Below, one piece after another: positions 3,217 through 64,000 of a stretch of 64,000 bases of DNA; positions within the stretch are counted from its first letter, which is position 1; each line of letters begins with the position of its first letter. Made by a program: the position numbers and the translations under genes. Below the pieces are notes generated by a model that saw only the letters and a list, made by a program, of their open reading frames with translations, was not told the DNA's origin and did no database searches. The DNA comes from Escherichia coli (lineage in GTDB: Bacteria > Pseudomonadota > Gammaproteobacteria > Enterobacterales > Enterobacteriaceae), in assembly GCF_051903065.1 (NCBI RefSeq), contig NZ_CP178438.1. One strand, 5' to 3'.

Positions 3217-3293
<77 letters not shown>

Positions 3294-3350
3294 TTTAGTC
3301 CCGGCGCTTGAGCTGCGGTGGTAGTAATACCGCGTAACAAGATTTGTAGT

Positions 3351-3427
3351 GGTGGCTATAGCTCAGTTGGTAGAGCCCTGGATTGTGATTCCAGTTGTCG
3401 TGGGTTCGAATCCCATTAGCCACCCCA
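3351..3427 (+). tRNA. hisR: tRNA-His (anticodon GUG), with the extra 5' G(-1)
   Basis: GGTGGCTATAGCTCAGTTGGTAGAGC...CCCATTAGCCACCCCA; anticodon loop region TTGTGAT. Confidence 0.95.
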
Positions 3428-3447
3428 TTATTAGAAGTTGTGACAAT

Positions 3448-3534
3448 GCGAAGGTGGCGGAATTGGTAGACGCGCTAGCTTCAGGTGTTAGTGTCCTTAC
3501 GGACGTGGGGGTTCAAGTCCCCCCCCTCGCACCA
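3448..3534 (+). tRNA. leuT: tRNA-Leu (anticodon CAG), long variable arm
   Basis: 87-nt class II tRNA GCGAAGGTGGCGGAATTGGTAGACGCG...CCCCCCCTCGCACCA. Confidence 0.95.
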
Positions 3535-3576
3535 CGACTTTAAAGAATTGAACTAAAAATTCAAAAAGCAGTATTT

Positions 3577-3653
3577 CGGCGAGTAGCGCAGCTTGGTAGC
3601 GCAACTGGTTTGGGACCAGTGGGTCGGAGGTTCGAATCCTCTCTCGCCGACCA
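3577..3653 (+). tRNA. proM: tRNA-Pro (anticodon UGG)
   Basis: CGGCGAGTAGCGCAGCTTGGTAGCGC...TCTCTCGCCGACCA; anticodon loop TTTGGGA. Confidence 0.95.
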
Positions 3654-3799: not shown

Positions 3800-5035
3800 A
3801 TGCTGCAACAGGTTCCAACGCGTGCTTTTCATGTGATGGCGAAACCGAGCGGTTCCGATTGTAATCTGAACTGTGACTACTGTTTTTATCTCGAAAAACA
3901 ATCCCTTTACCGCGAAAAGCCAGTCACGCATATGGACGATGACACGCTGGAAGCGTATGTCCGTCACTATATCACTGCCAGCGAACCGCAAAACGAAGTG
4001 GCTTTTACCTGGCAGGGCGGCGAACCAACGTTACTCGGGCTGGATTTTTACCGCCGTGCCGTAAAGTTACAGGCGAAATACGGTGCTGGCAGGAAGATAA
4101 GTAACAGCTTCCAGACTAACGGCGTGCTGCTCGATGATAAATGGTGTGCATTTCTGGCAGAAAATCATTTTCTTGTTGGGTTATCGCTGGACGGTCCGGC
4201 TGAGATCCACAATCAATATCGCGTGACCAAAGGTGGCAGACCAACGCATAAGCTGGTGATGCGTGCCCTGACGCTGCTGCAAAAACATCATGTCGACTAT
4301 AACGTGCTGGTCTGCGTCAACCGCACCAGCGCGCAGCAACCGTTGCAGGTTTATGATTTTTTGTGCGATGCGGGAGTCGAATTCATCCAGTTTATTCCGG
4401 TGGTCGAGCGTCTGGCTGATGAAACAGCTGCCCGCGATGGACTGAAATTGCATGCGCCTGGTGATATTCAGGGGGAACTGACGGAATGGTCGGTGCGCCC
4501 CGATGAATTTGGTGAATTTCTGGTGGCGATATTCGACCACTGGATTAAACGCGACGTCGGCAAGATTTTCGTGATGAATATCGAATGGGCGTTTGCCAAT
4601 TTTGTCGGTGCGCCGGGTGCGGTTTGCCATCATCAGCCAACCTGTGGGCGCTCGGTGATTGTTGAGCACAATGGCGACGTTTACGCCTGCGATCACTATG
4701 TTTATCCGCAATATCGACTGGGGAATATGCACCAGCAAACAATTGCAGAAATGATCGATTCCCCGCAACAGCAGGTGTTTGGTGAAGATAAATTTAAGCA
4801 ATTACCGGCGCAGTGTCGCAGTTGTAACGTGTTAAAAGCATGTTGGGGAGGCTGCCCGAAACACCGCTTCATGCTCGATGCCAGCGGCAAACCGGGACTG
4901 AATTATTTGTGTGCCGGGTATCAGCGTTATTTCCGCCATCTACCGCCATATCTTAAAGCAATGGCTGATTTGCTGGCGCACGGTCGCCCGGCCAGCGACA
5001 TTATGCATGCGCATTTGCTGGTGGTGAGTAAGTAA
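3800..5035 (+). CDS. aslB: Radical-SAM anaerobic sulfatase-maturating enzyme homologue, 411 aa
   Basis: CxxxCxxC radical-SAM motif (CNLNCDYC) near the N-terminus and C-terminal Cys clusters; start trimmed from the track ORF (3770) to the ATG giving MLQQVPTRAF; lies next to sulfatase aslA. Confidence 0.8.
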   Translation: MLQQVPTRAFHVMAKPSGSDCNLNCDYCFYLEKQSLYREKPVTHMDDDTLEAYVRHYITASEPQNEVAFTWQGGEPTLLGLDFYRRAVKLQAKYGAGRKISNSFQTNGVLLDDKWCAFLAENHFLVGLSLDGPAEIHNQYRVTKGGRPTHKLVMRALTLLQKHHVDYNVLVCVNRTSAQQPLQVYDFLCDAGVEFIQFIPVVERLADETAARDGLKLHAPGDIQGELTEWSVRPDEFGEFLVAIFDHWIKRDVGKIFVMNIEWAFANFVGAPGAVCHHQPTCGRSVIVEHNGDVYACDHYVYPQYRLGNMHQQTIAEMIDSPQQQVFGEDKFKQLPAQCRSCNVLKACWGGCPKHRFMLDASGKPGLNYLCAGYQRYFRHLPPYLKAMADLLAHGRPASDIMHAHLLVVSK

Positions 5036-7282: not shown

Positions 7283-7489
7283 GTAGATGCTCATTCCATC
7301 TCTTATGTTCGCCTTAGTGCCTCATAAACTCCGGAATGACGCAGAGCCGTTTACGGTGCTTATCGTCCACTGACAGATGTCGCTTATGCCTCATCAGACA
7401 CCATGGACACAACGTTGAGTGAAGCACCCACTTGTTGTCATACAGACCTGTTTTAACGCCTGCTCCGTAGTAAGAGCAGGCGTTTTTTT
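7283..7489 (+). ncRNA. glmZ: Small RNA GlmZ (activator of glmS translation), about 207 nt including its intrinsic terminator
   Basis: No ORF; sequence GTAGATGCTCATTCCATCTCTTATGTTCGCC... matches GlmZ as I recall it; located in the aslA-hemY spacer; ends in hairpin aacgcctgctc/gagcaggcgtt plus T7; CATAAT -10 hexamer at 7271-7276. Confidence 0.8.
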
Positions 7490-9986: not shown

Positions 9987-10727
9987 TTATTGTAATGCCC
10001 GTAAAAGCGCATCGTTGTCAGCGTTATCGGCGACCTTAATGTCTTGCCAGCCCAGTTCCCGGGCGAGTTTCGCCAAACGCTCACTGACGACCAATAGTCG
10101 ACAGTGTAGTAACCAGTGCTCACGATACCATTGTGGGATCAGCGACCAGAGTTGCTGCAACATTTCACCGCTGGTAACAACGACCGTCGTCACCTCGCGG
10201 GATTGCCAGCGCATCGCTTCTTCTGCACCATCGTAATGGATTGCGCATCGTTGATAACATTCACAAAAAGTGACCTCAGCACCGCGCGCCGTCAGGGTAT
10301 CCCCAATTAGCTCACGACCGCCATTGCCACGTAATATCAGCGCACGTTTGCCCGCAATATTTTGTAATTCAGGTAATTGTAGCAAGACTTCGCTGATTTC
10401 CCGATCCTGTGGGTAGAGAATCTTCTGTCCGCTTACGGTATGTAGCGCCAGTGCGGTGGTGCGTCCAATGGCGAAATAAGTAGGTAGTCGGGGCCATTTA
10501 CGATCTTGCTGATGCAGCTGTGATTGGGCAAAAGCAACCGCGTGTTGCGAGAGGGCAAACAACAGATCGCTCTCCCCCAGCGCTGCCAGTTGATCAGCAA
10601 GTTGCGGTAATTGTCGACCCGGAGAAAACTCAATCAGCGGAAAATGCCAGGCCACCTGCCCCAGTGTGCGCAGACGGCTCACTAACTCTTCTCCAGCGGG
10701 AGACGGGCGGGTGACAAGGATACTCAT
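9987..10727 (-). CDS. hemD: Uroporphyrinogen-III synthase, 246 aa
   Basis: ORF length and position between hemC and hemX; start overlaps the hemC stop by 4 bp. Confidence 0.85.
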
Positions 10728-11665
10728 GCCGGGGCGTCTCCGTTATAGACTTCAGCGAGGATCTCGCGCGCGCCGTTATTCAGTAGCTCTTCTGCCAGCG
10801 AAATCCCCATTTGTTCGGCATCTTGCGGCGCACCGCGGCGTTCACCGCGAATAATCTGCGAACCGTCCGGCGCGCCGACCAGCGCACGCAGCCAGATTTC
10901 GCCATCAATAAGCTCGGCGTAGCTACCAATTGGCACCTGACATCCGCCTTCGAGACGGGTATTCATGGCGCGTTCTGCGGTAACGCGCAGTGCAGTTTCG
11001 TGGTGATTCAGCGCGGCAAGCAGCTCGCGAGTGCGTGAATCATCAAGGCGGCATTCAATACCGACTGCACCTTGTCCTACCGCCGGAAGAGAAATCTCGG
11101 GTGGCAACGCGGCGCGAATGCGGGACTCCAGACCTAAACGTTTTAGTCCGGCTACGGCAAGAATGATGGCATCGTATTCGCCGTTATCCAGTTTGCTCAG
11201 GCGAGTGCCGACGTTGCCGCGCAGGGAGCGGATAATCAGATCCGGGCGGCGTTCAGCCAGTTGGCACTGGCGACGTAAACTGGACGTCCCGACGATACTG
11301 CCTGCCGGTAACGCATCCAGACTGTCATAGTTATTGGACACAAAGGCATCGCGAGGATCTTCACGCTCACAAATAGTGACCAGTCCCAGACCTTGCGGGA
11401 ATTCAACCGGCACATCTTTCATTGAGTGTACGGCGATATCGGCGCGATTTTCGAGGAGCGCGACTTCCAGCTCTTTTACAAATAAGCCTTTTCCGCCTAC
11501 TTTCGCCAGCGGCGTATCAAGAATCACATCGCCGCGCGTCACCATCGGTACCAGTTCAACGACCAGGCCCGGATGGCTCGCCATCAACTTGTCTTTGACA
11601 TAGTGTGCCTGCCAGAGTGCAAGTGGGCTTTGGCGTGTGGCAATTCTTAAAACATTGTCTAACAT
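10724..11665 (-). CDS. hemC: Porphobilinogen deaminase (hydroxymethylbilane synthase), 313 aa
   Basis: Start trimmed to the ATG giving [19 protein letters not shown]...; the track ORF extends 7 codons further to 11686, an alternative start. Confidence 0.85.
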
Positions 11666-12051
11666 GCTTGTTACCGTCATTATCATCCGTGGTCCATCCT
11701 AACATCCTTGCCAGAGTGATGTCAGTGTTGTGGTGAAACGTAGACGCCTGCGCAAACCGTAAAATGAGGTCTGGCAGTGGATCCTGACAGGCGTTTCACG
11801 CCGTCGTAATAAGGAATTTACAGAGAATAAACGGTGCTACACTTGTATGTAGCGCATCTTTCTTTACGGTCAATCAGCAAGGTGTTAAATTGATCACGTT
11901 TTAGACCATTTTTTCGTCGTGAAACTAAAAAAACCAGGCGCGAAAAGTGGTAACGGTTACCTTTGACATACGAAATATCCCGAATGCCGCGTGTTACCGT
12001 TGATGTTGGCGGAATCACAGTCATGACGGGTAGCAAATCAGGCGATACGTC

Positions 12052-14598
12052 TTGTACCTCTATATTGAGACTCTGAAACAGAGACTGGATGCCATAAATC
12101 AATTGCGTGTGGATCGCGCGCTTGCTGCTATGGGGCCTGCATTCCAACAGGTCTACAGTCTACTGCCGACATTGTTGCACTATCACCATCCGCTAATGCC
12201 GGGTTACCTTGATGGTAACGTTCCCAAAGGCATTTGCCTTTACACGCCTGATGAAACTCAACGCCACTACCTGAACGAGCTTGAACTGTATCGTGGAATG
12301 TCAGTACAGGACCCGCCGAAAGGTGAGCTTCCAATTACTGGTGTATACACCATGGGCAGCACTTCGTCCGTAGGGCAAAGTTGTTCCTCTGACCTGGATA
12401 TCTGGGTCTGTCATCAATCCTGGCTCGATAGCGAAGAGCGCCAGTTGCTACAACGTAAATGTAGCCTGCTGGAAAGCTGGGCCGCCTCGCTGGGTGTGGA
12501 AGTCAGCTTCTTCCTGATTGATGAAAACCGCTTCCGTCATAATGAAAGTGGCAGTCTGGGGGGCGAAGATTGTGGCTCCACCCAGCATATACTGTTGCTT
12601 GACGAATTTTATCGTACCGCCGTGCGTCTCGCCGGTAAGCGTATTCTGTGGAATATGGTGCCGTGCGACGAAGAAGAGCATTACGACGACTATGTGATGA
12701 CGCTTTACGCGCAGGGCGTGCTGACGCCAAATGAATGGCTGGATCTCGGTGGCTTAAGCTCGCTTTCTGCTGAAGAGTACTTTGGTGCCAGCCTTTGGCA
12801 GCTCTACAAGAGTATCGATTCCCCATACAAAGCGGTACTGAAAACACTGCTGCTGGAAGCCTATTCCTGGGAATACCCGAACCCACGTCTGCTGGCGAAA
12901 GATATCAAACAGCGTTTGCACGACGGCGAGATTGTATCGTTTGGCCTCGATCCGTACTGCATGATGCTGGAGCGAGTTACTGAATACCTGACGGCGATTG
13001 AAGATTTCACCCGTCTGGATTTAGTACGTCGCTGCTTCTATTTAAAAGTGTGCGAAAAGCTCAGCCGTGAACGCGCCTGTGTAGGCTGGCGTCGCGCAGT
13101 GTTGAGCCAGTTAGTGAGCGAGTGGGGTTGGGACGAAGCTCGTCTGGCAATGCTCGATAACCGCGCTAACTGGAAGATTGATCAGGTGCGTGAGGCGCAC
13201 AACGAGTTGCTCGACGCGATGATGCAGAGCTACCGTAATCTGATCCGCTTTGCGCGTCGCAATAACCTTAGCGTCTCCGCCAGTCCGCAGGATATCGGCG
13301 TGCTGACGCGTAAGCTGTATGCCGCGTTTGAAGCATTACCAGGTAAAGTGACGCTGGTAAACCCGCAGATTTCACCCGATCTCTCGGAACCGAATCTGAC
13401 CTTTATTTATGTGCCGCCGGGCCGAGCTAACCGTTCAGGTTGGTATCTGTATAACCGCGCGCCAAATATTGAGTCGATCATCAGCCATCAGCCGCTGGAA
13501 TATAACCGTTACCTGAATAAACTGGTGGCGTGGGCATGGTTTAACGGCCTGCTGACCTCGCGCACCCGCTTGTATATTAAAGGTAACGGCATTGTCGATT
13601 TGCCTAAGTTGCAGGAGATGGTCGCCGACGTGTCGCACCATTTCCCGCTGCGCTTACCTGCACCGACACCGAAGGCGCTCTACAGCCCGTGTGAGATCCG
13701 CCATCTGGCGATTATCGTTAACCTGGAATATGACCCGACAGCTGCGTTCCGCAATCAGGTGGTGCATTTCGATTTCCGTAAGCTGGATGTCTTCAGCTTT
13801 GGCGAGAATCAAAATTGCCTGGTAGGTAGCGTTGACCTGCTGTATCGCAACTCGTGGAATGAAGTGCGTACGCTGCACTTCAACGGCGAGCAATCGATGA
13901 TCGAAGCCCTGAAAACTATTCTCGGCAAAATGCATCAGGACGCCGCACCGCCAGATAGCGTGGAAGTCTTCTGTTATAGCCAGCATCTGCGCGGCTTAAT
14001 TCGTACTCGCGTGCAGCAACTGGTTTCTGAGTGTATTGAATTGCGTCTTTCCAGCACCCGCCAGGAAACCGGGCGTTTCAAGGCGCTGCGCGTTTCTGGT
14101 CAAACCTGGGGCTTGTTCTTCGAACGCCTGAATGTATCGGTACAGAAACTGGAGAACGCCATCGAGTTTTATGGCGCTATTTCGCATAACAAACTGCACG
14201 GCCTGTCAGTGCAGGTTGAAACCAATCACGTCAAATTACCGGCGGTGGTGGACGGCTTTGCCAGCGAAGGGATCATCCAATTCTTCTTCGAAGAAACGCA
14301 AGACGAGAATGGCTTTAATATCTACATTCTCGACGAAAGCAACCGGGTTGAGGTGTATCACCACTGCGAAGGCAGCAAAGAGGAGCTGGTACGTGACGTC
14401 AGTCGCTTCTACTCGTCATCGCATGACCGTTTTACCTACGGCTCAAGCTTCATCAACTTCAACCTGCCGCAGTTCTATCAGATTGTGAAGGTTGATGGTC
14501 GTGAACAGGTGATTCCGTTCCGCACAAAATCTATCGGTAACATGCCGCCTGCCAATCAGGATCACGATACGCCGCTATTACAGCAGTATTTTTCGTGA
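12052..14598 (+). CDS. cyaA: Adenylate cyclase, 848 aa, TTG start codon
   Basis: Codon at 12052-12054 is TTG; product begins [18 protein letters not shown]...; divergent from hemC. Confidence 0.9.
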
Positions 14599-14958: not shown

Positions 14959-15040
14959 TGTTGTATCCTGTTTTTAAGTGATGGCGGCAGTATAAGTTGT
15001 TTCGTCTAACAGTGAAATCAACATGGTTCGGCTATAAAAC

Positions 15041-15466
15041 TTAACCTACATACCTCGTCCCATTCCAACGCAAGATTGTATCCTCGTCGCATAAAAGGTT
15101 GTGTACGCCATGATTCTTTTCTTTCATCAGGCTGATTTTGCTACAAAAATAATCAATGTTAATTTTGGAGTTATCCGGGGTCATAATACTGCAAGCCATA
15201 GTTGGTGCGTCACTCGCGGTATATCCACAATCGTCTTTCCCGCAGGCAGCGGGAGGCGTGGAGGGTGAATACGTGCAGTTAAGCGTTTCGGAAATGCCAT
15301 CATCGTTAATGTCGAGGGGACGGCTAATCTCATCGCTGTCAGTGCCTAATGTGGTTGCATCCAGGATGACGTTTGGTTTTTGTATCTCGCTTGTGGCCGC
15401 GTAATTGAAGCTGCTTGCGGCCATTATGCCTAGAGCTATGCCAATCCGTAAGGCTATTTTTTGCAT
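15041..15466 (-). CDS. Small secreted cysteine-rich hypothetical protein, 141 aa (island gene A)
   Basis: ATG with GAGGA RBS upstream; N-terminal signal peptide (ALGIMAASSFNYAA); six Cys in the mature part; start overlaps the stop of gene B; AT-rich. Confidence 0.6.
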   Translation of the reverse strand: MQKIALRIGIALGIMAASSFNYAATSEIQKPNVILDATTLGTDSDEISRPLDINDDGISETLNCTYSPSTPPAACGKDDCGYTASDAPTMACSIMTPDNSKINIDYFCSKISLMKEKNHGVHNLLCDEDTILRWNGTRYVG

Positions 15467-16749
15467 CCTGGTTCCTCTGTAATAATCATAATGTCTCTGT
15501 TTTGAACTTCACGCACATTCTCTTCTCTGACACGAGTTTTCGCCGGACAGGGGGATGGCGTAATCCTGACCTCTGTATCGGTCCAGGTATAAACATTGCG
15601 ATCGTCATAAGCGAAGCGATCGTTTTTAATTAGCGGGCCGTTAGTTGGAATAATTTGCACGCTCTTTGACCGTAATTGGCGGATAAAGTAAACATGTTGT
15701 TTGCCGCCATTAAATGAGTTATCAATGACCAGGTCTGGCGAATCCAGCGGAATTATTTCAAGCTGGTCTTCACCAAAAGTCGATAATTTTGTTACATACA
15801 GACGATCTTTATACTGCGCAATATTGCCAGTAATCAGATGAAATTGTTCAGGTTCAATATCCGGTAGGTCTATCCACTTGCTCCACTGACGGTCGGGCGA
15901 GAGCTGTTTACGCCAGCGAACGCGACTTTCCCCCACTTCAAAAGAGACGTCATCATCTACGGGTATCGCTTTGCCAGATAATTGCCCAAAGGGATAACGA
16001 TGCAGACCATTGTTGTCGCGAAAAACCAGCAGTGAATGAGGTATCCAGCGAATTATCTCAAATGAGTCTGCATTCGCCGTAAGGTGAACGCCATTTAAAT
16101 AAATATTCTGCCCACTGCGGATAAGCAGATCATTGGAATACAAATTTCTGTTTACACTCATAAGACGTGGATTAATACCCCACCATCTTTTTTCTAATAC
16201 AGTAACATTACTGCTGCTCCCCTGACGTCGACCGGACAAATAGAGATTTTTACTATCCACCAGCGTGGTAGAGTTACCTTCGATAGCTTTTAGTGTCGCC
16301 AGATCAACACGTGACGCGCCGCTATTACTTTCGGTGCGCTGTCCATCAAAATAGAGGCTATATTTATCGACCGCGAAGCGGCCCATAGCCTGAAAGCTGG
16401 CAATATCGACAGTGGGTATTCCCGGTGGATTGCTAACGATTTTGCCACGCCAGAGAATAACGCGGCCGTCTGTCACCCAGTGGTATTCCTCATTTTTTAT
16501 GCTTATTTCATCGGTGGGTATATAGCCTTCCACTAACTCCCGCTCCCCGGATATATTTGTCACAAGGCGCAAATCGGCTCTGTTCATCTTCGGAAATTGG
16601 GCAATGATTTTCTCATCCTCCCCATAACCTTTACCGTAAGACATGACACCGTGATCATTGTAATAGTCGAACCCTATGGCCTGTACAGCAGGTGTCAGAA
16701 ATGTGTGCCCCAACAGGATGAGTGCAACTGTGATTATTTGACCATTCAT
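15454..16749 (-). CDS. Secreted repeat protein, DKNYY-like family, 431 aa (island gene B)
   Basis: Signal peptide; repeated motifs DKYSLYFDG, SKNLYLSG, GQNIYLNG, ANADSFEII; paralogous to the upstream 502-aa gene; ATGA overlap with that gene's stop. Confidence 0.8.
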   Translation of the reverse strand: MNGQIITVALILLGHTFLTPAVQAIGFDYYNDHGVMSYGKGYGEDEKIIAQFPKMNRADLRLVTNISGERELVEGYIPTDEISIKNEEYHWVTDGRVILWRGKIVSNPPGIPTVDIASFQAMGRFAVDKYSLYFDGQRTESNSGASRVDLATLKAIEGNSTTLVDSKNLYLSGRRQGSSSNVTVLEKRWWGINPRLMSVNRNLYSNDLLIRSGQNIYLNGVHLTANADSFEIIRWIPHSLLVFRDNNGLHRYPFGQLSGKAIPVDDDVSFEVGESRVRWRKQLSPDRQWSKWIDLPDIEPEQFHLITGNIAQYKDRLYVTKLSTFGEDQLEIIPLDSPDLVIDNSFNGGKQHVYFIRQLRSKSVQIIPTNGPLIKNDRFAYDDRNVYTWTDTEVRITPSPCPAKTRVREENVREVQNRDIMIITEEPGCKK

Positions 16750-18254
16750 TTTGTCGCCTCATTGCGCGGGGCAGGAATAAATTCGCCGTCATCGGTAATT
16801 TTTCCGTCCAGATATCCCGTTTTGTAATTTACCCCGTAGCCATATCCCGAATGTTGTTCCTTCCAGATTAAGCGAACTTGTTTCGGATCAGCGGTGCGGT
16901 ATCGCCAGAGCTGCGCGCCATCAAAGCTGTAAACGTAGCGGTTATCGCGGGCATACCATCTGCGCAAAAAGGGATGGTCATTAAGATGGGCTTCGCGTTC
17001 ATCCGGAGAACGGTTATCCAGTAAGATCAGCGGTCCGTCAGATTCAAACACGTGTAAACCGGAATGGTATGGCCACCCTTCGGCACGCGTAAGTAAATAG
17101 CCGTGGCGTTTCCCGGCGTTGAAACGTTTGTTGATAATAAGATTGGGATCATCAAGTTTCACGATCTCCAGCTTGCGGTCACCAGACTCTGTTTCGATGA
17201 TGGTATAAAGCGAGTCCTGATACTGTGCGACAGCATCACTGATGGGGTGAAACTGTTCCGGATCGAGTCCGGGTAATTCTTCCTGTTTACAGTCAGGCCC
17301 CTGACGCCAGAACACTTTCTTTTCCAGCAGAGAAAAATCCAGACAGTGCTTTGTTAAATCTTCATCCCACGCCAGATTTTCCTTGTCGAGGACTTTACGC
17401 TGCAGCCCGTTTTTATCACGCCAGGTCAAGAGTGAGCCGGGCATCCAGCGCACGACGGAAAAAGTGTCCGGGTCGGCATCAAGCTGTTCGCCGTTGATCA
17501 GGATTTTGGTTCTTGTACGAGCCAGGGTATCCCAGGGGCCAAATGGCATAGCCACACAGGGATTAAACGCGGTAGAAAACTTTCCTCTTTGATCCCATGA
17601 CTTTTGTGCCAGCACACGGAAACTCTCGGGGTCAGCGAGGCGATGCCCATCGACATATAAGAAATTAGCGTCACGTAATATCAGCCCCAGTAAGTCAGGA
17701 TCCCAGGGAGGCCGGAATTCCACCTGATGCAGTGTTTTGATATCTACGCTATTTCCCCCGCCATTGTCATCGGTGCGCTTGCCTTCGAAATAGAGACTGT
17801 GTTTATCTGCGGCAAAATCACCCCATGCCTTGAACGAGGCGACATCGACGGGAGGTTTGTCTGGCGGGTTTTGCACAACTTCACCCGCGTAGAGGATATT
17901 GCGGCCATCGCTATGCCAGGAGTAATGAGGATACCAGGCTTGTGCGCCTTCATAGAGGTAGTCGGTTGTTAGATCAGTCAGAGGTGGTTCTTTATTCCAT
18001 TCATCTTGTGTTGTTGGGTCTATTAATAAATTGGGTAAACGGCGCAAACTCTTGTAATTCACGTCAGGTAGAGAAAGATTTGTTTCTTTATAAGGGCGCA
18101 GGTACACCACGCCTTTTCCCTGTTTCTGGTAAATATTATGTTCAGGTGCATCAAGCCGACATCCCCATGCCGACGATAAGAACAATGAACAAGCCAACAA
18201 ACAAACCACATTGCGATAGTGCATAAAGCCATCCTGGCGCGAGGTGTTGATCAC
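16746..18254 (-). CDS. Secreted repeat protein, DKNYY-like family, 502 aa as called (island gene C)
   Basis: GTG at 18254, or ATG at 18224 giving MHYRNVVCLLACSLFLSSAWG... signal peptide; motifs DKHSLYFEG, DANFLYVDG, ADPESFRVL, ADPDTFSVV; similar to gene B (e.g. NPPDKPPVDVASFKAWGDFAADKHSLYFEGKRT vs NPPGIPTVDIASFQAMGRFAVDKYSLYFDGQRT). Confidence 0.8.
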   Translation of the reverse strand: MINTSRQDGFMHYRNVVCLLACSLFLSSAWGCRLDAPEHNIYQKQGKGVVYLRPYKETNLSLPDVNYKSLRRLPNLLIDPTTQDEWNKEPPLTDLTTDYLYEGAQAWYPHYSWHSDGRNILYAGEVVQNPPDKPPVDVASFKAWGDFAADKHSLYFEGKRTDDNGGGNSVDIKTLHQVEFRPPWDPDLLGLILRDANFLYVDGHRLADPESFRVLAQKSWDQRGKFSTAFNPCVAMPFGPWDTLARTRTKILINGEQLDADPDTFSVVRWMPGSLLTWRDKNGLQRKVLDKENLAWDEDLTKHCLDFSLLEKKVFWRQGPDCKQEELPGLDPEQFHPISDAVAQYQDSLYTIIETESGDRKLEIVKLDDPNLIINKRFNAGKRHGYLLTRAEGWPYHSGLHVFESDGPLILLDNRSPDEREAHLNDHPFLRRWYARDNRYVYSFDGAQLWRYRTADPKQVRLIWKEQHSGYGYGVNYKTGYLDGKITDDGEFIPAPRNEATK

Positions 18255-18333
18255 GATACTGCCAGCAGAACATAAATCCTCACACGTAAGCGTAATTCTC
18301 GCGGCAAATCGTCACTTTTCAGAATCCATAAAG
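18163..18333. repeat. Copy 1 of a 171-bp direct repeat (promoter/leader/signal-peptide module), covering the 5' end of gene C
   Basis: About 93% identical to 19245-19415 at a constant offset of 1082 bp (ccccatgccgacgataa...cacttttcaga). Confidence 0.9.
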
Positions 18334-18590
18334 GTCATTGCTATTTTCTGATAGTTGCTGGGGTAAACGTGATGTTTTCATTCACGATATAAATACGAGG
18401 TACTGCGCCATGGTGTGACTGATCACGTTAAAATGTGCCGGGTTGACGCCGGGAAGGGGTTCAACATGCGACTCTGCCCCCGTTGCCTACTTTATTGTCT
18501 TTCGCGAGTTGTACCCATGTTCCACCACTGGTATCTAACATTCTCCACATTATTACGCTTTCTGCCGAATGTGATTTTTATAGAAATCTA

Positions 18591-19145
18591 TCAATTCATT
18601 TTCCCTGTGCCATAAATTTTATCCTTCACATCCTGCCGAACGCGGGTCTTGTACCCCCCGTTGTGAAGATCTTCATACGGAGAAAAAGAATCTTTACTCC
18701 ACCCCAGCAGCACTTTATCGCCAGGCATAAAATGCACATGCAGAAAATCTTCTCCCCATTCTCTTTTGGGGAGAGGTAACGTCATATTCCGTTTCTCCAG
18801 ACGCATTCCAGCATTATACTGTGTACGAGTAGTACTTAATGTCCAGATAACCTCTGCAGTATCCCCACTGACATCACCACAACAGGTTGTTGAACCTCCA
18901 CCATTTGCAAAAGCATTCGCGCCCGCCACGCCGTTAACACTGAATCCCAGTATCGGACGGTCAATTTCACTGTGGATTTCCAGAATCACTCCACCTCTTG
19001 GACCTCCCCATACTGCCTGCCCTATATTCCACAACACGACCAGTACTGGAACGACAATTAACGTCCGCCATACCCAGCGCCCCCAGCGGGCATAACCGCG
19101 CGTAAGCTTTTGGTCAAATTTTTCCAGTTGGGTAAATAGCCCCAT
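18591..19145 (-). CDS. DUF3304-like membrane-anchored protein, 184 aa (island gene D)
   Basis: ATG with AGGGA RBS upstream; N-terminal TM segment (WRTLIVVPVLVVLWNIG); motifs GFSVNGVAGANAFANGGGSTTCCGD and LHVHFMPGDKVLLGW resemble DUF3304 proteins as I recall them. Confidence 0.6.
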   Translation of the reverse strand: MGLFTQLEKFDQKLTRGYARWGRWVWRTLIVVPVLVVLWNIGQAVWGGPRGGVILEIHSEIDRPILGFSVNGVAGANAFANGGGSTTCCGDVSGDTAEVIWTLSTTRTQYNAGMRLEKRNMTLPLPKREWGEDFLHVHFMPGDKVLLGWSKDSFSPYEDLHNGGYKTRVRQDVKDKIYGTGKMN

Positions 19146-19244
19146 CAGATTTTATTCCCTCTTATCACCAGGTTGGCAAAGTTGTATGTCACTAGCGACT
19201 AAGGTCAGACAACGAAATTGCATGGTGCGCCACTCTATTAAAAG

Positions 19245-19415
19245 CCCCATGCCGACGATAAAAACAACGAACAAGCCAACAAACAAACCACATTGCGATA
19301 GTGCATAAAGCCATCCTGGCGCGAGGTGTTGATCACGAAACTGCCAGCAGAACATAAATCCTCACGAGTAAGCGTTATACTCGCAGCATTTCCTCACTTT
19401 TCAGACTTCATAAAG
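19245..19415. repeat. Copy 2 of the 171-bp direct repeat, upstream of gene D; holds a 32-codon stub of the gene C signal peptide
   Basis: Minus-strand reading from GTG at 19336 gives VINTSRQDGFMHYRNVVCLLACSLFLSSAWGF then a stop at 19238-19240. Confidence 0.9.
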
Positions 19416-19494
19416 AGTCGCTAAACGCTTGCTTTTACGCCTTCTCCTGCGATGATAGAAAGCAGAAAGCGATGAACTTTACAGGCAATCCATA

Positions 19495-45487: not shown

Positions 45488-47730
<2,243 letters not shown>

Positions 47731-61197: not shown

Positions 61198-62739
<1,542 letters not shown>

Positions 62740-62807
62740 CCTTAAAGAAGCGTACTTTGCAGTGCTCACACAGATTGTCTGATGAAAATGAGCAGTAAAA
62801 CCTCTAC

Positions 62808-62884
<77 letters not shown>

Positions 62885-62926
62885 AATTTGCACGGCAAAT
62901 TTGAAGAGGTTTTAACTACATGTTAT

Positions 62927-63002
62927 GGGGCTATAGCTCAGCTGGGAGAGCGCCTGCTTTGCACGCAGGAGGTCTGCGGTTCGATCCCGCATAGCTCCAC
63001 CA
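62927..63002 (+). tRNA. alaT: Spacer tRNA-Ala (anticodon UGC)
   Basis: GGGGCTATAGCTCAGCTGGGAGAGCGCCTGCTTTGCACGCAGGAGG...CATAGCTCCACCA. Confidence 0.95.
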
Positions 63003-63176
63003 TCTCTGTAGTGATTAAATAAAAAATACTTCAGAGTGTACCTGCAAAGGTTCACTGCGAAGTTTTGCTCTTTAAAAATCTGGATCAAGCTGAAAATTGA
63101 AACACTGAACAACGAGAGTTGTTCGTGAGTCTCTCAAATTTTCGCAACTCTGAAGTGAAACATCTTCGGGTTGTGA

Positions 63177-64000
63177 GGTTAAGCGACTAAGCGTACACGG
63201 TGGATGCCCTGGCAGTCAGAGGCGATGAAGGACGTGCTAATCTGCGATAAGCGTCGGTAAGGTGATATGAACCGTTATAACCGGCGATTTCCGAATGGGG
63301 AAACCCAGTGTGTTTCGACACACTATCATTAACTGAATCCATAGGTTAATGAGGCGAACCGGGGGAACTGAAACATCTAAGTACCCCGAGGAAAAGAAAT
63401 CAACCGAGATTCCCCCAGTAGCGGCGAGCGAACGGGGAGGAGCCCAGAGCCTGAATCAGTGTGTGTGTTAGTGGAAGCGTCTGGAAAGGCGCGCGATACA
63501 GGGTGACAGCCCCGTACACAAAAATGCACATGCTGTGAGCTCGATGAGTAGGGCGGGACACGTGGTATCCTGTCTGAATATGGGGGGACCATCCTCCAAG
63601 GCTAAATACTCCTGACTGACCGATAGTGAACCAGTACCGTGAGGGAAAGGCGAAAAGAACCCCGGCGAGGGGAGTGAAAAAGAACCTGAAACCGTGTACG
63701 TACAAGCAGTGGGAGCCTCTTTTATGGGGTGACTGCGTACCTTTTGTATAATGGGTCAGCGACTTATATTCTGTAGCAAGGTTAACCGAATAGGGGAGCC
63801 GAAGGGAAACCGAGTCTTAACTGGGCGTTAAGTTGCAGGGTATAGACCCGAAACCCGGTGATCTAGCCATGGGCAGGTTGAAGGTTGGGTAACACTAACT
63901 GGAGGACCGAACCGACTAATGTTGAAAAATTAGCGGATGACTTGTGGCTGGGGGTGAAAGGCCAATCAAACCGGGAGATAGCTGGTTCTCCCCGAAAGCT
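63177..64000 (+). rRNA. rrlA: 23S ribosomal RNA, 5' part (continues beyond the window)
   Basis: Begins GGTTAAGCGACTAAGCGTACACGGTGGATGCCCTGGCAGTCAGAGGCGATGAAGGACG. Confidence 0.95.

Follow-up and report, generated by a model that had tools for sequence, protein, structure and literature searches.

Where does translation of cyaA begin, and does the start codon used there limit the amount of adenylate cyclase that is made? These questions are raised by the cyaA locus of an Escherichia coli genome (RefSeq assembly GCF_051903065.1, contig NZ_CP178438.1), of which one stretch of 64,000 nucleotides, referred to here as the window, was analysed. An earlier note had proposed that the gene opens at a TTG, that an inefficient initiator of this kind is a known way of limiting the enzyme, and that gene finders restricted to ATG would miss or truncate the gene. 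The evidence discussed below indicates that cyaA, which encodes a class I adenylate cyclase, is almost certainly translated from a weak UUG at 12052 that keeps cyclase levels low. The UUG start of cyaA is already known: it was described in 1983-85, tested by mutagenesis and reviewed, and the observation is correct and ordinary. What goes slightly beyond the textbook is the strictness with which the codon and the block from -18 to +18 around it are conserved, and this is offered as a modest lead.

Identity of the gene and limits of its reading frame

Four features define the reading frame and its candidate starts.

12052..14598, + strand: cyaA coding sequence, class I adenylate cyclase, 848 aa (open reading frame, Pfam, NCBIfam)
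12052..12054, + strand: TTG (UUG) initiation codon of cyaA (sequence, first start after the in-frame stop, RefSeq start, conservation)
12031..12033, + strand: in-frame stop (TAG), beyond which the cyaA frame cannot extend upstream (sequence and definition of the open reading frame)
12130..12132, + strand: codon 27 and first in-frame ATG, the start that an ATG-only caller would choose (sequence and list of open reading frames)

Judged by its domains and family match, the product of 12052..14598 is a full-length class I adenylate cyclase (CyaA), for which catalytic conversion of ATP to cAMP is predicted. Pfam PF12633 (Adenyl_cycl_N) covers residues 5-200 (E = 1.2e-82) and PF01295 (Adenylate_cycl) covers residues 228-825 (E = 3.2e-258). 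The NCBIfam equivalog NF006977 aligns over 1-848 of the 848 residues, scoring 2050 bits vs a cutoff of 1761. The gene neighbourhood also matches the enterobacterial order for class I CyaA, with hemC divergent upstream and cyaY convergent downstream, and the same neighbours recur in Serratia, Erwinia and several distant loci. A search of the PDB by sequence for relatives of CyaA found none.

The same start has been annotated in other E. coli genomes. The RefSeq/PGAP start of cyaA in NZ_CP021726 (strain Combat11I9) is identical (locus position 3903 corresponds to 12052 of the window), and the RefSeq start of cyaA (b3806) in K-12 MG1655 is likewise a TTG, at 3991153. From -400 to +200 of the cyaA start, the window differs from MG1655 at one base (at -247), and CyaA differs from its K-12 counterpart in a single residue (N142S). 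Given this near-identity around the start, published experiments on K-12 cyaA apply directly to the window. A stretch of 801 nt spanning the cyaA start is present in 5425 of 5426 complete E. coli genomes. An island of ~4.5 kb that is absent from K-12 was observed downstream of cyaY; it leaves cyaA untouched.

The + strand around the start reads TAG CAA ATC AGG CGA TAC GTC TTG TAC CTC TAT ATT GAG ACT CTG AAA, and the TTG opens a frame whose product begins MYLYIETLK. The six codons between the TAG and the TTG (CAA ATC AGG CGA TAC GTC) include zero ATG, GTG or TTG. With the frame shut just upstream, the UUG is the 5'-most possible start of cyaA. An in-frame upstream extension of the gene was considered and rejected, being blocked in the window by the TAG at 12031. 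The earlier note had stated that no in-frame ATG lies nearby. This holds upstream of the TTG; downstream it fails, as an ATG is found at codon 27 (12130), 78 nt away. Two further in-frame candidates lie between them, a TTG at codon 18 (12103) and a GTG at codon 20 (12109).

A gene finder restricted to ATG would, as the note had anticipated, truncate cyaA: the call would start at 12130 and give 822 aa, with the TAG at 12031 blocking any upstream ATG. Such a call would lose 26 conserved residues of a central regulatory enzyme, and the main value of the locus is as an annotation check. Callers that prefer ATG have also been found to over-extend cyaA where an upstream ATG is in frame (for example, in the 866-aa Serratia models). 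A protein model of 822 aa (P0010) was considered as a product of ATG-27 and rejected, since it begins upstream of the TTG and is a fragment from the edge of a contig.

Conservation of the start codon and its surroundings

Loci of cyaA were taken from the best 80 of 402 matching species by similarity, all of them Enterobacteriaceae. The start codon was readable in 79 of these loci, and 78 had enough flank for per-position analysis. TTG was found at the cyaA start in all 79 species, and ATG or GTG in none. Within E. coli, queries of 53 nt were built so that every 28-nt megablast seed spans the start codon. With the native TTG, the query finds matches in 5425 of 5426 complete genomes, 5421 of them in the identity band of 99% or better, which for a query of this length means a perfect match only. 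The ATG and GTG versions of the query had no match in the 5426 complete E. coli genomes.

Beyond Enterobacteriaceae, eleven loci were sampled one protein at a time, and TTG occupies the homologous position in six. These six belong to Serratia, Erwinia, two lineages at ~63-64% identity, one lineage at 49%, and Actinobacillus rossii (Pasteurellaceae, 45%); a recognisable TCAGG motif is retained upstream in several of them. A lineage at 55% identity has GTG at the homologous start position, and an AT-rich distant lineage has an ATG start. The Gilliamella gene has its called start at a GTG seven codons upstream, behind a strong Shine-Dalgarno, and ATG stands at the aligned position. A lineage at 43% identity has its gene called at a TTG, with an N-terminus that aligns unclearly with that of E. 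coli, and at one ambiguous locus the called start is ATG, with a TTG one codon ahead of the aligned position. On these comparisons, conservation of the TTG is far beyond chance, and a non-AUG start of cyaA is old and widespread in the family, yet UUG is not universal. UUG has also been reported to start cyaA in many Enterobacterales and in Gammaproteobacteria outside that order (PMC5499595, citing Reddy 1985 and Roy 1983).

The alignment with CyaA orthologues that the earlier note had suggested as a check also bears on the codons that follow the TTG. Codons 2-26 show zero amino-acid substitutions in 78 Enterobacteriaceae species, with the nucleotides varying (over residues 1-16 this invariance is partly ascertainment, as the 80 loci were found via peptide patterns from that stretch). 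In the same species the summed entropy of these codons reaches 10.78 at third positions, as against 1.54 at first and 0.00 at second positions, and first-position variation is limited to Leu and Arg codons in which the amino acid is unchanged. Zero substitutions together with synonymous variation argue that codons 2-26 are translated and held by purifying selection. M27 is invariant across species, and all 26 residues that precede it are equally invariant. Most of the 78 species have CTG at codon 18, and codon 20 is variable in the third position, which argues that neither TTG-18 nor GTG-20 is a conserved start. Whole-protein searches are free of the bias from the residue 1-16 patterns and offset the ascertainment. 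A word-index search recovered the same CyaA N-terminus in Salmonella, Klebsiella, Serratia, Erwinia and Edaphovirga, and an exhaustive search at 50% clustering recovered CyaA homologues at 45-64% identity that align from residue 1.

Three further features lie around or upstream of the start codon.

12034..12069, + strand: nucleotide-conserved initiation region, -18 to +18 (per-position entropy, 78 species)
12040..12046, + strand: modest Shine-Dalgarno-like AGGCGAT (predicted 16S pairing and conservation)
11883..11898, + strand: CRP-like site TGTTAAATTGATCACG in the cyaA promoter region (matching TGTGAN6TCACA at 8/10)

The AGG core of the Shine-Dalgarno-like element stands 9 nt before the TTG, and the extended pairing leaves a spacer of 5 nt. 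Paired with the window's own 16S 3' tail (GAUCACCUCCUUA), AGGCGAT is predicted to form a duplex of -5.9 kcal/mol; the background within the cyaA coding sequence has a mean of -3.4 kcal/mol, with ~22% of positions at -5 or better. The element is real but modest, and it lies at functional spacing. The block ATCAGGCGATAYGTC (-15 to -1) is nearly invariant, and all 78 species retain it. From -18 to -1, no position other than the Y at -4 has an entropy above 0.48; from -19 outward, values climb past 1.2. Upstream of -18 the sequence of the 78 species is essentially unconstrained, with indels that are not multiples of three, and E. coli and Salmonella differ in frame upstream of the conserved block. 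A conserved block that gives way to free sequence with frame-breaking indels is what one expects where a ribosome-binding site borders on a non-coding leader. On the coding side, codons 2-6 show almost no synonymous change, the 2nd lowest among 341 five-codon windows. These patterns hint that the whole initiation region, beyond the codon alone, may be under selection, which we regard as a modest lead.

The leader itself is plain. Folding predicted no more RNA structure in 11990-12100 than in shuffled controls (z = -0.01), on which ground a structured or riboswitch-like cyaA leader was rejected, and an Rfam search of the leader returned nothing. A promoter consensus scan missed the known cyaA promoters. 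The CRP-like site at 11883-11898 belongs to the transcriptional setting of the gene and not to the start-codon feature; it is a putative counterpart of the cAMP-CRP site reported by Aiba (1985) to overlap promoter P2 of cyaA. Of 77 species scanned, most carry the block AAGGTGTTARATTGATCACGTTTTA around this site, at 141-179 nt from the TTG; for 10 species (E. coli L002 among them) the scan settled on another 8/10 site that lies closer to the TTG. The variable distance of the block from the TTG fits a non-coding leader.

Alternative sites of initiation

Two other open reading frames near the start have to be considered when initiation elsewhere is weighed.

12023..12076, + strand: upstream ATG open reading frame, out of frame, 17 codons, overlapping the TTG start (sequence)
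12089..12097, + strand: out-of-frame mini-ORF ATG CCA TAA, 37 nt after the start (INRI-seq, mapped to the window)

The second of these corresponds to a site detected by start-site profiling. In INRI-seq Table S3, K-12 position 3991189/90 (+37, out of frame) is given as an alternative site with 9.1 CPM in 4/5 replicates, and this site is absent from the in vivo Ribo-RET values reproduced in that study (PMC9825163). The INRI-seq alternative-site table holds only the +37 entry for cyaA, with none in frame and none at the 12023 ATG (PMC9825163). The supplements of TRAINSPOTTER N-terminomics and of tetracycline profiling are without a cyaA entry.

Could translation begin only at ATG-27 (12130), with the 26 preceding codons forming an untranslated leader that is open by chance? 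ATG is the usual start, at ~88% of annotated E. coli start sites (PMC9825163), M27 is invariant across 78 species, and a GGAU upstream of ATG-27 gives a predicted duplex of -4.9 kcal/mol with the 16S tail. However, codons 2-26 carry a purely coding signature in which all variation among the 78 species is synonymous. The Pfam N-terminal domain is matched from residue 5, the NCBIfam equivalog from residue 1, and homologues at 45-64% identity also align from residue 1. The conserved non-coding block directly precedes the TTG and not the ATG, the INRI-seq alternative-site table gives no in-frame site at +78, and mutagenesis at the UUG alters expression (Reddy 1985, via PMC5499595). Initiation at a downstream ATG only, which the earlier note had named as the finding that would overturn its reading, is ruled out by the comparative data; judged by the substitution pattern, it is effectively refuted, with a probability close to nil. 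A second alternative is dual initiation, in which the UUG yields the full-length enzyme and GTG-20 or ATG-27 a minor, N-terminally truncated isoform. An in-frame GTG (12109) and ATG (12130) exist, weak primary starts can permit internal initiation, and speA is among the other E. coli genes for which in-frame internal starts have been documented (PMC9825163). The third base of GTG-20 varies among species, however, TTG-18 is CTG in most of them, and Shine-Dalgarno pairing before GTG-20 is essentially nil (-1.3 kcal/mol). Neither the INRI-seq table nor the Ribo-RET values reproduced with it give an in-frame alternative site for cyaA, and a minor isoform of this kind is considered very unlikely.

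Low translation of cyaA could also have its real determinant upstream, if the open reading frame at the 12023 ATG were translated and acted on the TTG by occlusion or coupling. This ATG is preceded by GGCGGAAU, for which a duplex of -5.9 kcal/mol is predicted, and its reading frame overlaps the TTG. Across species, however, it is conserved neither in presence nor in frame as judged from the aligned loci: Klebsiella, Enterobacter and most other genera lack it, Salmonella, Citrobacter and E. albertii have it in frame at -10 codons, and in E. coli it is out of frame, so that no small open reading frame is conserved. The INRI-seq alternative-site table has no in vitro entry for the 12023 ATG, and mutating the UUG alone shifts expression 2- to 6-fold (PMC5499595, citing Reddy 1985). 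An upstream determinant is likewise held to be very unlikely. The start of the 848-aa product at the TTG, with MYLYIETLK as its predicted N-terminus, is supported by the sequence, the closed frame, conservation and RefSeq.

A weak start codon and known systems

The simplest reading of the locus is a weak start codon in an otherwise ordinary, unstructured initiation region. The 30S subunit would be positioned by the modest Shine-Dalgarno-like AGGCGAU (12040-12046), and the initiator tRNA would read UUG with a first-position mismatch, leading to initiation several-fold less efficient than at AUG. Weak initiation would in turn result in a low amount of adenylate cyclase, and this translational limit would act on top of the transcriptional repression of cyaA by cAMP-CRP. 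That an inefficient initiator limits this enzyme, as the note had stated, is documented: after changes of the start codon, cyclase levels were in the ratio UUG:GUG:AUG = 1:2:6 (Reddy 1985, cited in PMC5499595). From the literature, the UUG also gives the cyaA mRNA particular regulatory properties. UUG initiation is described as the least sensitive among non-AUG starts to cold, nutritional state and ppGpp (PMC5499595). Polyamines are reported to stimulate UUG-dependent binding of fMet-tRNA, and Cya is placed in the polyamine modulon, in the class with inefficient UUG/GUG starts (PMC7177335).

The weak codon is fixed in E. coli and in the sampled Enterobacteriaceae, and it recurs in other Enterobacterales and in a Pasteurellaceae genome. 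From this distribution it appears to be kept by selection and not just tolerated, and we infer that selection acts specifically on its weakness. ATG and GTG are each a single base away and would raise expression; cyaA would be a clear case of a start codon kept weak by selection. The absence of ATG and GTG variants from 5425 E. coli genomes and 79 species is consistent with excess adenylate cyclase being harmful.

Does the initiation region do more than set a low rate? The near-invariance of the 36 nt from -18 to +18 and the synonymous constraint on codons 2-6 could be read as the mark of a site specifically recognised in trans by a regulator, such as a small RNA or a protein. They could also be read as a dedicated arrangement in which UUG initiation depends on conditions (polyamines, IF3 or ppGpp state, for example) and is not simply weak, and the in vitro signal at the +37 mini-ORF could take part. 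We put this forward tentatively and think it unlikely, at odds well short of even.

The closest known system is cyaA of E. coli K-12, whose UUG start was described by Roy, Haziza & Danchin (1983) and by Reddy, Peterkofsky & McKenney (1985). The locus, the TTG and the annotated start are the same, and nothing relevant differs. The AUU start of infC, which encodes IF3, is like the cyaA UUG a phylogenetically conserved non-AUG start that serves as a regulatory device (PMC5499595). For infC, the gene's own product discriminates against AUU and closes an autoregulatory loop, whereas the UUG of cyaA mainly sets a low ceiling on expression. An autoregulatory loop of the infC type is not known for cyaA. 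[quoted passage not shown] The cyaA gene of the window shares with this class a UUG, placed behind a normally spaced Shine-Dalgarno, and its responsiveness to polyamines is predicted.

Conserved initiation region of cyaA and nearby reading frames

The class I adenylate cyclase gene cyaA (12052..14598, plus strand, 848 aa) begins at a TTG codon. Its surroundings were compared at the nucleotide level across 78 Enterobacteriaceae species, which were the loci with enough flanking sequence among the 80 most similar of 402 matching species. The comparison delimited a near-invariant initiation region, and two out-of-frame reading frames lie close to the TTG:

12034-12069: near-invariant initiation region of 36 nt (-18 to +18 relative to the TTG)
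12023-12076: 17-codon ORF from an upstream ATG, in another frame, overlapping the cyaA TTG
12089-12097: mini-ORF ATG CCA TAA, out of frame, 37 nt inside cyaA

Codons 2-6 rank second-lowest in synonymous variation among 341 five-codon windows, and variation is low in codons 8-14 as well. [quoted passage not shown] In Salmonella, Citrobacter and E. albertii, the ATG of the 17-codon ORF is placed in frame with cyaA by a 1-nt indel, 10 codons upstream of its start. This in-frame ATG could mislead gene callers or could give rise to an extended CyaA isoform.

Start-site annotation in Serratia and at hemC

Several Serratia cyaA models (the distant locus L083 and the proteins P0030/P0036) are annotated with 866 aa from an upstream in-frame ATG (MEYGFFLNTGIIRRDV-LYLYIE...). 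The majority of Serratia models have 850 aa and start at TTG. The 866-aa models look misannotated, the gene caller having favoured ATG over the TTG. Another ambiguous start site was noted in hemC, the neighbour of cyaA:

10724-11686, minus strand: longest hemC ORF, ATG at 11686, 320 aa

RefSeq places the hemC start 21 nt downstream of this ATG, at 11665 (313 aa).

Other landmarks and the cyaY-lptM island

Three further features are ordinary landmarks:

3217-3650: four-tRNA cluster (Arg-His-Leu-Pro)
7283-7489: GlmZ small RNA
61198-64000: rRNA operon (16S, two tRNAs and the start of 23S), extending past the window end

Rfam also gives a strong match at 45842-46093 to RF02757, the family of the small RNA 'Erse' (318 bits), within the coding region annotated as tatB in the reference strain.

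The interval between cyaY and lptM, which spans 463 bp in K-12 MG1655, is longer here:

14959-19494: strain-variable island, approximately 4.5 kb

The island carries four ORFs (141, 431, 502 and 184 aa), all on the minus strand. Weak matches to the DKNYY family (PF13644) were found in two of them and a DUF3304 match in one; a search of all four against NCBIfam returned no match (0/4). Of the 5426 complete E. coli genomes, 846 carry the island in full. In another E. coli strain (NZ_CP021726), the same position is occupied by a different pair of DKNYY-family genes.
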